Source of the DNA: Naegleria gruberi
Taxonomy: Eukaryota
Reading direction: 5' to 3' (one strand)
DNA: 64,000 nt
NCBI GenBank assembly: GCA_000004985.1
Contig: GG738866.1
A program made the position numbers and the translations under genes. The notes beneath the pieces were generated by a model. The model saw only the letters and a list, made by a program, of their open reading frames with translations, ran no database searches and was not told the DNA's origin. Shown piece by piece: positions 3,827 to 56,716 of this stretch (within the stretch, counting starts at the first letter, position 1; each line of letters starts with the position of its first letter).

Positions 3827-5309
3827 TTATCTACGAGTACAAATGAGTTGACCTCTTGGATGTAAACCTTCTTCTTCCAAAGTCTTGTTAATATTAGCTG
3901 ATGTGAGGGAGTATGTTTTTGGTGGAACACCTGGGCAATTGAATGAGAAAGTAGAATCCTTAACCAATGTGGCAATGTGAGCATGGACAGCCTTAATGGT
4001 ATCAGTTGGTTTGAATTTGGCAGTTATGGTTGTACCATCCAAAAGACGAACTCTGATGGCACTTTCTTGTGGTTGGGCAGGAGTTTGAGTGGTAGTTGGA
4101 GTGCTAGTGGCTGAGGATGAACCTTCAGAGCTAGTTGGAGTGGTGTCACGAGCGAGGAAGGCCTTCAAACCCATTCTTTGCAAATCAGTGAGATCCTTTT
4201 CGGCTTGACGAAGTTCTTCAGCCTTACCTTCTTGTCTGAATCTGTCCATCTTTCTTCTAATTTTATCTTCTTCGAGCAATTGTTTCATTCTGAGTTTTTC
4301 CTTCTTTTCGTCTTGCTTTTCCTTCTTGAATAATTCCAAATCTCTCTTCTTTTGATCTTCCTTGAGCTTTTCCATAGTTTCCATGGCCAATTTACCTTGT
4401 TCTCTACGTTTTAATTCTCTTTCCCTTTGTGATTTCTTTTCCTCTTCTTCCATCTTTCTCTTATTTTCCATTCTCTTTTGTTTGAGAAGTTCCTTCATTT
4501 CTTCAGCACGTTTCTTCTTATCTTCTTCAGTTTCAACAGTGAATTGAATCATTTCATCAATATCAGGATCTTCTTGATGTTCAAGCAACCATTCAATACA
4601 TCCTTCCTTTGAAGGTGGTTGTGGTGAATTCAAGAGAGCCTTCATTGATCTCAATTTAGAAAATTCCATTTCCATAAGTTCCTTAAGAATGTTAGCATCA
4701 ACAACTTTTTCAATTTCAGCCATAACTTGTTCATCAGAAACAGTTGTATCTACAGCTTTGGTTTCAGAGCTTGATGATTCTGTGGTGGTTGATGATGGTG
4801 TAGTTGTGGAGGATGAAGAATCAGTCTTTTTAGCATCAGTAGATGGCTTTGTTGTGGCCTTCTTTAACTTGTTTTGCAACAAGGACAATTCAATAGCCTT
4901 ACGAGTTTCGTCATCCAATTCATCAATTTCATCTTCCATAGCATCAACCTTTCTTACTGGTCTATGTTCATCAGCCCATGGATTTTTATAGACTTGACCT
5001 GCCAATCCTGATGAAGTTGTTGTATCAGAACTACTACTACTACTGGTTGCTCCCAAACTTCTACCACCTCCTTGGAAGGCTTGGAATGAATCTCCATATT
5101 CGTTAATCAATTTTTCTACTTTTTGAATATCAGCTCCGACTACAGATGTGAGCTTTGTATTATTCTTATAAAAGACAAATGTTGGCATTGCTCTAACTTC
5201 TTCCTTTGAGGAAATTGCATTATGTTTATCAACATCAACTTTGAGGAAGACAACGTTTGAATATTTAGAGGCAAGTGCTTCATAATGTGGTTTAATCATT
5301 TGACATGGT
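3827..5309 (-). CDS. thioredoxin-UIM-UBA-UBX protein, exon 2. Joined to 5559-5662 across a 249-nt intron (5310-5558), product is about 528 aa
   Basis: The acceptor atatag (rc 5310-5315) is followed by A CCA TGT CAA ATG ATT AAA CCA, giving G-P-C-Q-M-I-K-P and completing WCGPCQMIKP…[13 protein letters not shown]…[10 protein letters not shown] (thioredoxin fold). Downstream motifs: UIM-like [14 protein letters not shown]; UBA-like [11 protein letters not shown]…[16 protein letters not shown]; a K/E/R coiled coil; C-terminal UBX-like [28 protein letters not shown]…PRGQLI. Stop TAA is rc(3827-3829). Confidence 0.75.
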
Positions 5310-5558
5310 CTATATTATTATCATCATTAAATCATATGAATGATTTTGTATATTATTATTATTTCAATCAATGAAAATACAAGATATACATTGTGATCAC
5401 AAAATTAAATCATCGTCATTACATAACCAATTATAATTATCATCATCCGAATATTATTATTATTAAACCAATGATTAATATAAATTATTAATTAGTTAAT
5501 ATATTAATGATCACACAACAATCTCTACCCGATCAAAATCCAACATCACACAACTTAC

Positions 5559-9982: not shown

Positions 9983-10032
9983 NNNNNNNNNNNNNNNNNN
10001 NNNNNNNNNNNNNNNNNNNNNNNNNNNNNNNN
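9983..10032. other. 50-N assembly gap
   Basis: A run of exactly 50 n, directly abutting the 3' end of the U2 gene. Confidence 1.
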
Positions 10033-10040
10033 TAATAATA

Positions 10041-10249
10041 GGAGAAAGGGTGGCTCCAAAACTGACGGATAGTGCAATGTCTGCTTGAAACCTACCAAAG
10101 GGTGCTCTCAACTTGTTTCCAAGGAGGCACACCTCTGGACCCGACAAAAAATTGAGTTAATAGTAAACGCGCCCCGTAGGACGCTTTCAGCTATTAAACT
10201 GAAAAGAACAGATACTACACTCGATCAAAGCCAAAAGGCCGAGAAAGAT
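10041..10249 (-). ncRNA. U2: U2 spliceosomal snRNA
   Basis: The minus-strand sequence is ATCTTTCTCGGCCTTTTGGCTTTGATCGAGTGTAGTATCTGTTCTTTTCAGTTTAATAGCTGA…AATTTTTTGTCGGG…. This matches the canonical U2 5' end (AUCGCUUCUCGGCCUUUUGGCUAAGAUCAAGUGUAGUAUCUGUUCUUAUCAGUUUAAUAUCUGA), including the branch-point-binding GUGUAGUA and an Sm site AAUUUUUUG. The 3' end is approximate. Confidence 0.85.
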
Positions 10250-10379
10250 GTTTTGTAGAAAAGGCTTACCAGTAGTGTATAAATGCCATTTCAAAGTGGC
10301 TTTGTTGGTGGAGAAAATTTGTGGGATTTGAATATTTTTAAACAAGTTTGAAAATAAAATTGTGAGGAATGAAAAAGCC
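10250..10379. promoter_or_regulatory. shared divergent snRNA promoter region between U2 (minus) and the U3-like gene (plus)
   Basis: The region is only about 130 bp. A TATA-like TATTTTTAAA sits about 35-45 bp upstream of the plus gene and TTTATACACTACT about 30 bp upstream of U2. A central GTGGCTTTGTTGGTGGAGAAAATTTGTGGG element could be a shared USE/PSE. Confidence 0.35.
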
Positions 10380-10589
10380 ATCACATACCTTTCATTGATC
10401 CATATGTTCAGTTACAAAGCTTTTAGTTCTTTATTGGCTTCGTCTTTCATGATCACTGGAGCGGAAAGAAGAAAAGCGTTTCGTTTGAACATGTGCTTCG
10501 CTTCACATAGAACAAAGCAAACTTGGTACTACCTAGGTATTGTTCTTGTGATGTCATATTGATGACATCGATTGATGGTGCGAAGATCG
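10380..10589 (+). ncRNA. candidate U3-like box C/D snoRNA (Pol III-type, T-run terminated)
   Basis: The 5' ATCACATACCTTTCATTGATCCATATGTTCAG resembles U3 box A'/A (…ACUAUACUUUCAGGGAUCAUUUCUAUAG). TCATGATCActgGAGCGGAAAGAAG resembles box C'/box B (GAGCGUGAAG). CATATTGATGACATCG resembles box C (CAUUGAUGAUCG). The 3' GTCGGCTG before T10 is an imperfect box D. Boundaries are approximate. Confidence 0.4.
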
Positions 10590-10599
10590 TTGTCGGCTG
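10590..10599 (+). terminator. Pol III-type oligo-T terminator (T10) ending the U3-like transcript
   Basis: GGCTGTTTTTTTTTTA lies immediately after the box-D-like element. Confidence 0.45.
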
Positions 10600-10705
10600 T
10601 TTTTTTTTTATTATTTAAAATAATTTGTTAACGGTAATATTTTTAAAATTACCAAACTTAACACTAGAGGGTATATTAAACCTTTTATTTTACAATTAAT
10701 GTGCT

Positions 10706-10776
10706 CGTCTCGTGGTGTAATGGTAGCATAGTGGACTTTGAATCCATTGACGGAGGTTCGATTCCTCCCGAGACGG
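10706..10776 (+). tRNA. tRNA-Gln(UUG): tRNA-Gln (anticodon UUG), cytoplasmic type, 71 nt, no intron, CCA not encoded
   Basis: Acceptor CGTCTCG pairs with CGAGACG as a perfect 7-bp stem, with discriminator G. D arm GTGT/AATGGTA/GCAT carries an A-box TGGTGTAATGG. Anticodon stem GTGGA/TCCAT; loop CTTTGAA gives anticodon TTG. T arm GGAGG-TTCGATT-CCTCC carries a B-box GGTTCGATTCC. It closely resembles eukaryotic tRNA-Gln (GGTGTAATGGT.AGCA…GGACTTTGAATCC). Confidence 0.9.
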
Positions 10777-10797
10777 TAAACGTGGCGAGCCATGAAA

Positions 10798-10802
10798 TTT
10801 TT
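10798..10802 (+). terminator. Pol III terminator (T5) 22 nt downstream of tRNA-Gln
   Basis: GAAATTTTTATTTT follows the tRNA 3' end. Confidence 0.5.
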
Positions 10803-11058
10803 ATTTTCAAATTGTTCAAATTGATGCATCACTTGTATGTTAATTTTGATGATACTCCAGTTCACTCCATCAATTCCACACAAAATTTCTCCATTAAGCT
10901 GAAATACCGTACTCAACGGTCCAAAATGAACACTTTTACAAAAACTGAAACAGCCCATTCAATGATTCACTTTGCACAATTTGCTATCCACGCAAACGCT
11001 CCCAACACCAAGATTTCAAAGATTTCGCAGCAAACCAAAATCCAAATAAAAAAAATAA

Positions 11059-46783: not shown

Positions 46784-46959
46784 GGATAGAGTCAGCATAC
46801 GCAAGTAGATAGATTATTTCCAAGAATACTTACTTCGGAATAAGTGGAGACGACTCATCACTTCCACCTTAGGTTCTCTAGTCTTTTATGAAATTCATGA
46901 ACCTTAAGACTGATGAACCAGCTAGTTTATAATGAGTGATTGAGACAAAAGATGTCAAT

Positions 46960-47560
46960 GCCATACGGCTTACCAAACCTATACTTTGAGACCTTAATAG
47001 GTTCGAATAAGACAATGACTCCAACCACAATTATATTTACTCATTGCCTTATTCGATTTGATCTTTGATGAAAAATCGTTTAGGCGAATCAGATTTTAAT
47101 TGAATGAAATGTCATTTTCATGCAAGCTCAATATATTCGAAAAGGTCACTAAACTGCGCTATTCGAAATGTATTGACTTTTTACTATTGTGAAAGGTTTG
47201 AAACAGTGTCAAAAAAGTAGTTTCAAATAGATGTTTCTAAAGTCGCCAAAGATTGAAGAACTTGATAACCACTTGGTTAATATTTCAAATTGTTAATTGT
47301 TTAGGATGATATTTGGGATTCCAATGCCAGGTTTTGAGATAATGGTGGGCTTAGAATTTAACGAAAATGGTTTACCTGTTGTTTGCCTTCTTGACGTGTT
47401 TTGAAGCTTGGGAATACACTACAATTTCCTTTTTTATCTCAAAACGCGGCATAAAAATGAGTTTACGTCTGATTCCAATAATTCCAACAATGAACTGCTC
47501 GACGCATGTCATGCATCCAAAATAATACCCCATTTAGTCTAATCAACCCAAGAAACTAAA
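46960..47560. repeat. tandem repeat copy D (3' part of the unit) on the right side of the assembly gap
   Basis: GGTTCGAATAAGACAATGACTCCAACCACAATT…GATCTTTGATGAAAAATCGTTTAGGCGAATC…GACGCATGTCATGCATCCAAAATAATA aligns to 7741-8075 of copy A. An insert at 47210-47340 matches 9400-9560. Confidence 0.6.
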
Positions 47561-47716
47561 CGAAAGGATTTTACTTAATTTCAGATGCGTCATTAGCTGT
47601 TGATGCACATGGAGATAATCTTGGCAAGATGAAAGGTTAGGTCTTTTAAAACGTTGTGTTCTAAACTTTTTACTCTTTTCAAGAAACATGCTTTCTTCTA
47701 TATTATGAACTAAAGG

Positions 47717-50700
47717 CTAATTTATTTTATTACTAAACCATGAATCAAAGTCTTCTTCTTCTTCATTATTAGATTGAGCAGTAGTGGATGATGTATTGAT
47801 AGGCACATTCTTAATGCTTGCATTTGATAGCCTCTTGGTCTTGTTTGATCCAGTATTCTCGGTCTTTCTGAAGAATTGTGAAATTGTTTGCAACTTTTCA
47901 GCCTCTTCCATAATCGATTGTTGTTGTTGAGATTTGGAGGTATGATCTTCGAAATTAGGTTGTGGACTTGTAGCTTCTGATGATTGTGGCGAGTTCAAGT
48001 CTTCCTCTTCCTTGTAGGATTGTTTTAATTGATTGAAAAGATAACTCTGTTGATGTTCTGGAAGTACAACCTTATGAGTTGGTATTTCTTCCTTATTGTG
48101 AGGTTCAGTATTTGGTGACTGTACTGAACTTGTATTACTGACATCTTCGAAAATTCTATTGTTGGATGTCTTTTCAACACTATATTTTGCATCGTCTTCA
48201 TCGTCACTGCTATTATTATTACTTGCAAGGATTTGATTTGATACAGTGCTTCGGAAATCAAACTTTGGCTGGTGAGTATTTACATTGCTTGGTGCAATAT
48301 TTTGAGTGGAGTGAGATTGGCTTTCTGGGAATTCGTCACTATCAGATGATTCTTCCTTTGGAGAGAGTAAATCTTTCAATTCATTTTGTCTTTCCAAAGT
48401 TGAGAAGCTCATTGTTGGTTTTCTTTCCACAAGTGGAGAATCGAGAGGAGACTTTTTGAATGGCAACAAAACGGCTACCTTTGTTATTTGAGAAAGGAAT
48501 GTTTCCTTCTTCCCAACAGTGGATTCTTCTGCTGTGGAATCATCTGAAGGAGTGTTGACTCCGTCCCTTGAGGGCATATTGCCCAGTGGTGTATTGGTTT
48601 TCATGGCCATATCCCTGTACTTTTTCTCGACACCTTCCATACGTCTTCTCAGGGTGCTGAAGGTGCTCTCTTCATTTTCATCATCATCCACTGCATCTTC
48701 TTCATCTGCAGTTGGAGGTCTTCTCAGTTTAATCTTGTTAAAAACATATCCTGTCAATACAAGAATTTGAGAGAAGAAGAAGAGTAAAAAGGCCAACAAG
48801 TAAAATACCCACTCCTTAAGCTTGGTTGATATTCTAGCACTGTGCATTGAGTTGACCTTATTTTCCAATTCCTTGAGTCTACTTTCGTAGAGCTTGATAT
48901 CCTCTTCATGACTGGTTACTTTATCCTTAGTGATGGCTTGGGCTGAGTTCAACTGTAAGACAATAGTCGACAGGTGATTCATTCTTGACTCGATTTTTTC
49001 CACCTTATTCTTTAACTTATCAACAGTGACGTTCTTGTCAGTCATTTGCAGTCTTGATTGTTCGTGAGCATCATTAACTCTCTTCTTGGTATCCAGCAAG
49101 TCCAACTTGAGATTGTGAATTTCATTCATCAAGGTCTTTTCAGTGCATTGTAATTCCTCCTTTACCTTTTGAACAGCACTTGTTTGTTCCTTATGACCTG
49201 AGGAATACAATAAGCCATCATAAAGAGCGTATGATCGTGGAGTTTGTGAGACAAAAGTAGATTGTGAAATATCAGTAGAACTATCTCCTTCTATAGTGGA
49301 TTGGAAAACTCTTCCAGAGAGTAAATCATCTGAAACATCAATATTGAGGGAGTCTAGGAGAGTTTTACGTTCTGGCTTGTCGCGTGGTGTTAATTGAGAT
49401 GGTATACTTGGATTCAGACTCATACGATCCAGCAACTCTAAATCCTTTGCGGAGAAGGCAGGATTCTGGTAAGGAATGTATTGGAAACGAAGATGTACTT
49501 GAGAGAACGTTTTGGTACCTAGTGGCGTAATTAGACAGAACCAATCATCTAGAATTCTATCCTTGGCCAGTTTAACTCGAGAAATTGGAATTGAAACAAA
49601 TCCCAGACACATAATCTCATTCTTAGATTTAGGCTTTGGTGGACTGTGGAAAATTTCAATAGAGATTGAGCTAGATTCATCAGAAACGTAGAATTTAAAT
49701 TCCTCTTGCCACTTGAGTTTCTTGTTTAGATAGGCCCCACCAAGATTCATTGTTGTGTGCTTCTTTCCCTCACATAAAATTTCACAATACGTCACATAGT
49801 CTTCCAGTAGGATATTTTCTGTATTCTCCTCTTCATTTCCCAAAGCGTCCATTGATTGTAAGGATTTGACTCGCTTTTGAAGTGGTTGACCAGAGACTGA
49901 TGTATTCAGTGCTGACTCATTGGTATTATATCCCTCAACGGATTTCAAGTTTCTAGTCTGAACGTCAGTCACATACAGTTCTCCAATAGCCTCTCGCTTC
50001 TGCTCTTCCGGTGGAACATATACATAATCATAACTCTCAATATCTAGTGACATTCTATCGTTCTCTCCTCTCACCTTTGGTTGTGCCAGATAGTTTGGAA
50101 TAATTTTCTTTGGCACTGACTTGATAAAGGATGGAGCATTCTTCACTGTCGAAACGCCCTTCTTCACTTCATCTCTGATATTTTTCTTAAATTCCTTAAA
50201 ACTGTGCTTTATAGCGTGGGCAGGATTGGTGGTATTGGCGTATTCAGGGTTTCCAATTCCTTTAAATTTGTTACTAGTAGAAGAATTATTTGGTGTGATC
50301 CAATTTGTTGGAAAAGGTTTCTTGACACCACTACTAGAAGCTCTAGAAGGAAGACTATGTACATGAAAATGACCTTTTGAGTCCTCACTTGGTTGAGTCG
50401 TGCTTGTGGTTGGTTGAGCATGATCCCCTATTGTTGAATCTTCCGAATTAAGGTACTTTTCTGCATCCTCTGATTGACTTCTTTTCGGAGACGGTTTTCG
50501 GAATAAACTTTCACCACTGAGTTGAAACTTTTCTCTTTGGTGATGTCTAATAGACCCAGCTCGCTTATGTGATTTTTCTTGTTTTCCATGTTCATCCTCA
50601 ATAATAATTTCCGTACATATAGAAACAGCAGCTGAATTTTCATCGAAAGAATTGCTTCTCTTTTTCACCATTGGAGTTAAATCAGTTGGCGAAGGAGGTG

Positions 50701-56256: not shown

Positions 56257-56716
56257 CTTTGAATTGTTAAAAGCCAAAATTAAATTCATCACCACACAGT
56301 AACCATTTTCACACAGCACAGTAAGGACAAACAAGAGAATCAATTGAATTTCCAATACATGGAGTAACATATTCAGTGATGGACAAATACAGAGAAATTC
56401 ACGAATAAAGTTTCAATTACATTTTGAGACAGCAGTGAGCAAAAACGCGAAATTCCAAAATATGGACAATTTTCATACAACCCAGACCACATCAAAAAAA
56501 CAGAATCATTCACCATTAAAAAATTGAATCAACACACATTGTCATTCATGTAATTGAAAAGATGACAAAAAGATGACAGTGAGAGTGAAGGAAATGAGAG
56601 AAGGATGTAGGATAAGGATATGAGAAAACATATCATCATAATAGTGAAATAATACGAAATATATTATAATATTCAATTGAATATTTGTTAATCATCATTA
56701 CTAATAACAAACTTAC

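Follow-up and report, generated by a model that had tools for sequence, protein, structure and literature searches.

The locus described here raises the question of whether a Naegleria gruberi U2 snRNA gene and a nearby tRNA gene are accompanied by a third small-RNA gene and, if so, which RNA this third gene encodes. The window is the whole stretch of 64,000 nucleotides that was analysed, of which 28,225 are real (non-N) bases. Within it, the small-RNA cluster occupies a 1026-bp island (10033-11058), with N runs of 50 and 35,725 bases on its two sides. Because these N runs border the island, the 3' flank of the U2 gene and all sequence to the right of 11058 are missing. The earlier note on this DNA described a compact cluster composed of a U2 gene on the minus strand, a divergent U3-like snoRNA gene and a tRNA-Gln gene further downstream. 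The U2 and tRNA-Gln genes are both recovered by Rfam or ARAGORN at the positions proposed for them. The element between them, referred to here as the candidate, is assigned to no family. With moderate confidence, the region is read as a small-RNA gene island of N. gruberi that holds two certain genes and one probable gene. The coordinates of all features are given in Table 1.

Table 1. Features of the small-RNA island, in window coordinates.
Feature	Position	Strand	Support or remark
U2 spliceosomal snRNA gene, complete	10046..10251	-	Rfam RF00004, 121.4 bits, E 4.6e-24, model 1-192
TATA-like box of U2, TTTATA (U2 sense)	10278..10283	-	-32 to -27 of U2; putative function
USE-like motif copy 1, TCAAATCCCACAAATTTTCTCCA (U2 sense)	10309..10331	-	-80 to -58 of U2; putative function
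Inner 11-mer of motif copy 1, ATCCCACAAAT	-76 to -66 of U2	-	8/11 to plant USE RTCCCACATCG
A-rich, weakly TATA-like string AAAATAAAA	10351..10359	+	-29 to -21 of candidate; box boundary chosen by the analyst
Candidate structured RNA, ~220 nt	10380..10599	+	Folds, z-score, GC; no Rfam family
Candidate 5' string ACAUACCU	10383-10390 (nt 4-11)	+	Sequence
Candidate 11-bp helix	10401-10411 with 10485-10495	+	Predicted fold; encloses the hairpin below
Candidate enclosed hairpin	stem 10439-10448 with 10464-10473; loop AUGAUCACUGGAGCG 10449-10463	+	Predicted fold
Candidate helix	10496-10501 with 10580-10585	+	Predicted fold
Candidate perfect 8-bp hairpin	10550-10557 with 10562-10569	+	Predicted fold
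T10	10600..10609	+	Putative RNA polymerase III terminator of candidate
tRNA-Gln(UUG) gene	10705..10777	+	ARAGORN (anticodon TTG); Rfam tRNA RF00005 at 10706-10776
tRNA A box	10713-10723	+	Internal promoter box
tRNA B box GGTTCGATTCC	10755-10765	+	Internal promoter box
T5 terminator of tRNA gene	10798..10802	+	21 nt beyond tRNA 3' end
USE-like motif copy 2, TCAATTCCACACAAAATTTCTCCA	10870..10893	+	Oriented toward the 35.7-kb gap; no gene recognised in the remaining 165 bases

In a scan of the whole window against Rfam at curated thresholds, exactly two RNA genes are recovered, the U2 snRNA and the tRNA. The U2 score of 121.4 bits compares with a gathering score of 46 for RF00004, and the match covers the full model. 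The branch-point-binding GUAGUA of U2 lies at 10218-10213. The alignment to RF00004 displays GUGUAGUA and AAUUUUUUG, the GUAGUA and Sm-site elements that were looked for. U2 is transcribed leftwards. The tRNA scores 68.8 bits against a threshold of 29, ARAGORN reads its anticodon as TTG, and the T5 run that had been proposed as its end is in place. With its internal A and B boxes and its T5 terminator, the tRNA-Gln(UUG) gene has the usual make-up of a Pol III gene. Both the U2 and the tRNA-Gln genes of this compact island are themselves ordinary, routine annotations. The distances proposed for the cluster also agree with the sequence. The separation of about 130 bp between U2 and the middle element corresponds to a 128-bp spacer between the U2 start at 10251 and the proposed start at 10380. 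The distance of 116 bp to the tRNA holds when counted from 10589, and is 95 bp when counted from the end of T10.

Elsewhere in the window, the minus-strand ORF at 3827-5299 is 100% identical to the NCBI entry 'thioredoxin domain-containing protein [Naegleria gruberi]'. A second flanking protein has N. fowleri and Willaertia sequences as its best named relatives. A dictyostelid origin, and with it a DUSE, had been suggested by the Ser/Asn-rich ORFs and is rejected on account of these Naegleria-type flanking proteins. In the orthologous Trx-UBX/TPR loci of N. lovaniensis, a Naegleria sp. (Logan, ENA) and Willaertia magna, a counterpart of the island is absent. Since nothing island-like is present in these syntenic heterolobosean loci, the position of the cluster is not conserved. 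Clusters in which snRNA and tRNA genes likewise lie within a few hundred bases of one another are present in Euglenozoa, which also belong to Discoba (PMC2784804). In trypanosomatids, the snRNA and U3 genes have a divergent upstream tRNA gene at a distance of 93-105 bp, and the A and B boxes of this tRNA gene serve as the snRNA promoter; in Euglena, U3-tRNA and U3-U5 linkages occur (PMC2784804). The arrangement in Naegleria differs from that of trypanosomatids. Its tRNA gene follows the candidate and T10 on the plus strand, at a distance of 454 bp from U2, and U2 has a USE/TATA-type promoter of its own.

The candidate differs from the surrounding DNA in several respects. On the plus strand, it folds with an MFE of -60.9 kcal/mol and z = -2.64, and a recalculation gives z = -2.8. 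As background for the recalculated value, the remainder of the window was tiled with 78 segments of 220 nt, which have a mean z of 0.09 and an SD of 1.06. A z of -2.6 or lower is reached in one of the 78, and the candidate falls in the top 1-2% of this background. The structure signal is one of about 2.7 SD from a single sequence. The asymmetry between the strands resembles that of U2: z is -2.8 on the plus strand versus -1.4 on the minus strand of the candidate, and -4.25 in sense versus -0.85 in antisense orientation of U2. Each half of the candidate also folds on the plus strand, with z of -2.6 and -2.2. The GC content is 39.5% in the candidate and 31% and 20% in the flanking spacers. The T-run with which the earlier note had ended the middle gene is present, and besides this T10 no homopolymer run among the 28,225 real bases reaches a length of 10. 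It sits exactly at the 3' boundary of the candidate. T-runs of 8 or more on the strand of the candidate number only five. The 5' end, placed at 10380, is a guess.

The fold signal, the strand asymmetry, the GC step and T10, taken together, argue that the candidate is probably a genuine small-RNA gene, whether or not its product is a U1 snRNA. It would be an independent, structured small RNA of ~220 nt, transcribed rightwards and ending at T10. Such an end would point to RNA polymerase III; transcription, ends and polymerase are all predicted from sequence. Internal A or B boxes are not evident in the candidate. A six-frame concatenated translation of 10034-10615, a stretch that includes the candidate, has no match at E<=10 among 5.8 billion proteins, and because it is without a protein relative the candidate is regarded as non-coding.

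Searches for relatives of the candidate RNA are likewise negative. When stretches of 471 nt (10250-10720) and 241 nt (10372-10612) are compared with Rfam by cmscan at E<=10 with permissive filters, no family is assigned to the candidate. The best matches in these scans are 15-23-bit chance matches to unrelated models. A 23-mer from the 5' end of the candidate has no match in metagenomes. A Naegleria-type U2 23-mer matches three unrelated contigs there, which share the U2 5' end alone. In prokaryotic genome bins, neither a 21-mer from the candidate nor a 30-mer from U2 has a match. No homologue of the candidate is thus found in these collections.

Three further identities for parts of the island are rejected. 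If the candidate is aligned as a decayed inverted duplicate of U2, the alignment is at chance level (395/500 shuffles as good). A relationship between the candidate and the stretch that follows motif copy 2 is not significant (160/500 and 31/500 shuffles). The template of a telomerase RNA comprises at least one telomere repeat plus 1 nt. Neither CCCAAA plus 1 nt, in any permutation, nor a corresponding template for any of nine other common repeats occurs in 10380-10609, and for want of a template a telomerase RNA is excluded. The proposed telomere repeat of N. gruberi is TTTGGG (PMC3622300), and in plants and ciliates telomerase RNA is a Pol III transcript with a type-3 promoter (PMC8287931).

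The candidate is not a U3 snoRNA, nor does it belong to any other family in Rfam. U3 is recognised by a box D CUGA (usually GUCUGA) near the 3' end and by a box C UGAUGA that is free to form the B/C kink-turn. It also has a terminal stem that flanks boxes C' and D, and boxes A'/A that are complementary to the 5' region of 18S. The hinge of a U3 is in addition complementary to the 5' ETS of its own organism; the rDNA of N. gruberi is an extrachromosomal plasmid and lies outside the window. None of the models RF00012, RF01846, RF01847 and RF01848 matches the candidate in three scans, including those at E<=10 with permissive filters. In the 471-nt and 241-nt stretches, no match to any box C/D family is found at E<=10 either. 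The label of U3-like snoRNA is therefore withdrawn, since the element has no U3 match at the gathering score or at E<=10, falls below threshold for every box C/D family and is missing the defining boxes. CUGA is absent from the whole of 10380-10609, and therefore there is no box D. The 3' end of the candidate consists of a D-like string, GUCGGCUG, followed by U10. Because only U residues follow this string, a C'/D terminal stem is impossible; the C'/D kink-turn stem would require sequence 3' of it that is complementary to the flank of the C'-like string, and there is none. The sole UGAUGA (10560-10565) forms one arm of the perfect 8-bp hairpin and is thereby sequestered. When GGAUCAUUUCUAUAG-like boxes A'/A are sought, the best box A match is 9/15 and in the wrong place. 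The 5' region reads UUGAUCC rather than AGGAUC, with UU in place of the 18S-pairing GG of GGAUC.

It is very improbable that the candidate is nevertheless a U3 that has diverged strongly or is in decay, with Pol III transcription like that of plant U3. In its length of ~220 nt, its T-run end and its single-stranded 5' tail, the candidate resembles U3, including the Pol III U3 of plants. It also carries box-like strings in the U3 order (UGAUCA, GAGCGGAAAG, UGAUGA or GAUCGUU, GUCGGCUG). The T10 end is compatible with Pol III, by which plant U3 is transcribed according to references cited in PMC2784804, and a U3-tRNA linkage is known in Euglenozoa (PMC2784804). Alignment to a provisional human U3 sequence places the 5' 45 nt of the candidate marginally above chance (41/1000 shuffles as good, p ~0.04). 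With the same human sequence, the whole candidate is at chance (142/1000 shuffles). Against these likenesses stand the four silent Rfam models, the absence of boxes D and A, the hairpin-trapped box C and the lack of a C'/D stem. Among the relatives that have been studied well, the Euglenozoa are the nearest, and even they have kept the U3 boxes (PMC2784804); divergence is for this reason a poor excuse for the absence of the boxes here.

U1 snRNA carries the 5'-terminal splice-site-pairing motif ACUUACCU, which has the form AACUCACCUGCA in kinetoplastids, an Sm site of the type RAU3-6GR followed by a 3' hairpin, and the U1A loop AUUGCAC. The candidate could be a divergent Naegleria U1, the 5' end of which pairs with 5' splice sites and the first-hairpin apical loop of which binds U1-70K; this identity is unlikely. 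Two traits are U1-like, namely a 5' string that resembles the splice-site-pairing motif and a loop that carries AUCAC. The string ACAUACCU matches the universal ACUUACCU at 7/8 positions, with p ~0.003 for that position, uncorrected and with a guessed 5' end. It could pair with the G|GUAAGU of both mapped introns (n=2), except at +4; the canonical ACUUACC is a better fit to GUAAGU. The 15-nt loop contains AUGAUCAC, and its closing stem is paired at 9/10 positions. Of the conserved 70K motif AUCA[AC]GAA[AG], however, AUCAC alone is present in this loop, which does not contain GAAG, and the ungapped match to the motif there is 5/9. The head-to-head arrangement with U2 would suit a U1 gene. U1 was the one major snRNA missing from N. 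gruberi in a 2008 screen, in which unfiltered Infernal searches rescued only RNAs of G. sulphuraria and A. locustae and N. gruberi U1 was not recovered (PMC2396436). N. gruberi encodes U1-70K (PMC8211703). Some U1 RNAs of Discoba are very reduced, and one is without an Sm site; the related diplonemid U1, on the other hand, is a normal cloverleaf (PMC11613528).

The remaining traits of the candidate are unlike those of a canonical U1. It has no match to RF00003 or RF00488 at E<=10 and no Sm site of the RAU3-6GR type. The U1A loop is absent, its best match being 5/7 and outside any loop. The first hairpin starts late and is oversized at ~95 nt, and the T10 end would imply Pol III. Overall sequence similarity between the candidate and U1 is at chance level. 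With a provisional human U1 sequence, 922/1000 shuffles align as well as the whole candidate and 238/1000 as well as its 5' 45 nt. A separate U1-like string in the window, AAUACUUAC at 46829, beside the big gap, has no Rfam match and was rejected.

It is also possible, though somewhat unlikely, that the candidate is no functional gene at all, and that a spacer, a decayed fragment or a small-RNA pseudogene folds and carries a T-run by chance. This would account for the lack of a family match in Rfam and of a homologue in the metagenomes, prokaryotic bins, protein set and syntenic loci searched. It would also fit the absence of a promoter motif in the candidate's own sense. One background window folds equally well (z = -3.0). 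By-eye likenesses in the U-rich candidate are at chance, as in the comparison with U2 (395/500 shuffles). The region is poorly assembled and the site itself a contig of 1 kb; in such a tiny contig between gaps, a mis-join or a decayed repeat copy is possible. Opposed to this explanation are the four independent signals (fold z, strand asymmetry, two-ended GC step and T10), which share one strand and one interval, and the position of the candidate between two real small-RNA genes. A genuine small-RNA gene is still the preferred reading of the candidate.

The spacer between U2 and the candidate contains a real motif. The earlier note had quoted a 30-mer, GTGGCTTTGTTGGTGGAGAAAATTTGTGGG, as a USE-like element shared by both genes. 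This 30-mer is present at 10296-10325 and overlaps the motif, so the element itself stands; its sharing by the two genes is unproven, and the motif is directional. The two copies of the motif are identical at 21/24 positions with one gap. Their local alignment scores 31, compared with a shuffle maximum of 28, and none of 500 shuffles is as good. Both copies contain the same 15-nt core, which has no further exact occurrence in the window. The consensus over both copies is written TCAAWTCC(A)CACAAAWTTTCTCCA, with the core TCCCACA. Taken by itself, the string TCCCACAA shows no enrichment in the window, where one occurrence is found and 1.4 are expected. Downstream of both copies are TGAAAT and CTTTT..TACAAAA, the latter of which abuts the U2 start site. 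The motif is considered directional because both copies lead into these common strings. The idea that motif copy 2 precedes a fourth gene was rejected, as the sequence after it has no Rfam match and no fold signal (z +0.4 and +1.5).

Upstream of U2, a plant-like USE/TATA promoter is plausible. A type-3 snRNA promoter combines a TATA box at -30 with a conserved upstream element that snRNA genes have in common at a set distance. The plant USE consensus is RTCCCACATCG, and in Arabidopsis the USE-TATA spacing is 32-34 bp for Pol II and 23-24 bp for Pol III (PMC8287931, PMC545797). The Naegleria U2 gene resembles a plant type-3 promoter in its USE-like 11-mer, its TATA-like box at about -30 and the 33 nt between ATCCCACAAAT and TTTATA, a gap inside the Pol II range. 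The region of ATCCCACAAAT also matches the dictyostelid DUSE, [AT]CCCA[AT]AA at about -63 (PMC3188802), at 7/8 positions. Unlike the plant USE, the Naegleria motif is longer, with about 24 nt kept between its copies, and the last three positions diverge. The analogy with plant promoters rests on a single gene, together with a second motif copy that is followed by no identifiable gene.

A promoter shared by U2 and the candidate is an attractive idea that is unproven. A motif copy in the candidate's own sense is absent, and only the U2 copy, reversed, faces the candidate. The reversed copy ends 23 nt from AAAATAAAA, which equals the Arabidopsis Pol III spacing of 23-24 and agrees with the T10 end. 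The case for reverse use is weak, because the boundary of this box was chosen by the analysts themselves, the orientation is wrong and n = 1. In addition, AAAATAAAA would be a poor TATA box, and the surrounding DNA is AT-rich. Under bidirectional use, the single 24-nt motif would serve U2 at Pol II spacing, 33 nt from its TATA box, and the candidate at Pol III spacing, 23 nt from its A-rich box. The head-to-head gene pair would then receive two different polymerases through one element. That the candidate is the long-missing divergent U1 or a lineage-specific Pol III RNA, driven in this way from a bidirectionally used USE, is quite unlikely.

Neither the promoter motif nor the candidate overturns established knowledge, and their value is modest. 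In the 24-nt motif, with its TCCCACA core and its plant-like USE-TATA spacing, a specific sequence can be named as a candidate heterolobosean snRNA promoter element. If it is confirmed on other snRNA genes, elements of the USE/DUSE type would be extended to Discoba. The motif would then also be a search handle for unannotated small RNAs, as has been done for the telomerase RNAs of plants and ciliates. The candidate is a T10-terminated structured element beyond naming by current RNA family libraries, in a genome whose U1 escaped a dedicated covariance-model search. A U1 identity would mean that a free-living excavate rich in introns has a U1 of unusually remodelled form; otherwise the candidate would be one more lineage-specific small RNA.

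The USE-like motif, a 24-nt element lying upstream of the U2 snRNA, is present twice in the small-RNA cluster. The second copy (10870-10893, +) is identical to the first (10309-10331, -) at 21 of 24 positions, with one gap. It is oriented rightward and faces the 35.7-kb gap. If it follows the geometry of U2, a gene would be predicted to start near 10942-10950. The 110 bases remaining before the gap contain neither an RNA family match nor a fold.

Two further stretches resemble parts of U1. Just beyond the T10 run that ends the candidate, the unclassified structured element at 10380-10599 (+), the region 10617-10653 (+) contains AAUAAUUUGU, identical to the initial 7 nt of the Sm site in human U1. 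An AU-rich hairpin of 9 bp (10633-10641 paired with 10645-10653, +) comes after this string. With read-through of T10, the candidate would end in an Sm site and a hairpin. The GC content here is only 14-24%, and such matches are expected at chance level in a region of this composition. Directly right of the large gap, AATACTTAC (46829-46837) is a copy of the canonical U1 5' motif. The adjoining 220 nt (46884-47103) are the strongest folder of the background set, with z = -3.0 on the minus strand and -2.3 on the plus strand. In a sensitive search of 46784-47720 against Rfam nothing matched, and the string and the adjacent fold are therefore treated as chance.

Features of the window and of the metagenome contig L007
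Feature	Position	Strand	Remark
N run	9983-10032		50 bases
N run	11059-46783		35,725 bases
Mechanical ORF, 115 aa	10611-10958	-	antisense over the tRNA-Gln gene and motif copy 2
Two long ORFs, 533 and 502 aa	60850-63974	-	14 bases apart
Spliceosomal intron, Trx-UBX gene	5309-5557	-	annotated protein aligned back to window
Spliceosomal intron, PHB-depolymerase-like gene	56264-56714	-	annotated protein aligned back to window
Full U2, 168 bits	L007 5654-5848	same as partial U2
Partial U2, 47 bits	L007 6690-6799	same as full U2	1 kb past full U2

The 115-aa ORF almost certainly does not represent a gene, and an annotation might wrongly list it as a hypothetical protein. Taken together, the 533- and 502-aa ORFs resemble a single hybrid histidine kinase/response-regulator gene whose interruption would be due to a stop codon, a sequencing error or a very short intron. 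Both mapped introns have the 5' splice site G|GTAAGT. The Trx-UBX intron ends in ATATAG, and in the PHB-depolymerase-like gene the terminal AG immediately precedes the restart of the second exon.

L007 (Ga0209282_1000579) is an unrelated, AT-rich eukaryotic contig with a GC content of 35%. It carries a full and a partial U2 on one strand, so that its U2 copies are tandem or decayed. In the 5' region of U2, this contig and Naegleria have an unusual variant in common, GAUCGAG.

In the window, N runs on both sides isolate the small-RNA cluster on a 1026-bp contig. This isolation suggests that the assembly failed to resolve a repeat-rich or multi-copy region here, possibly in the form of a small-RNA gene array.
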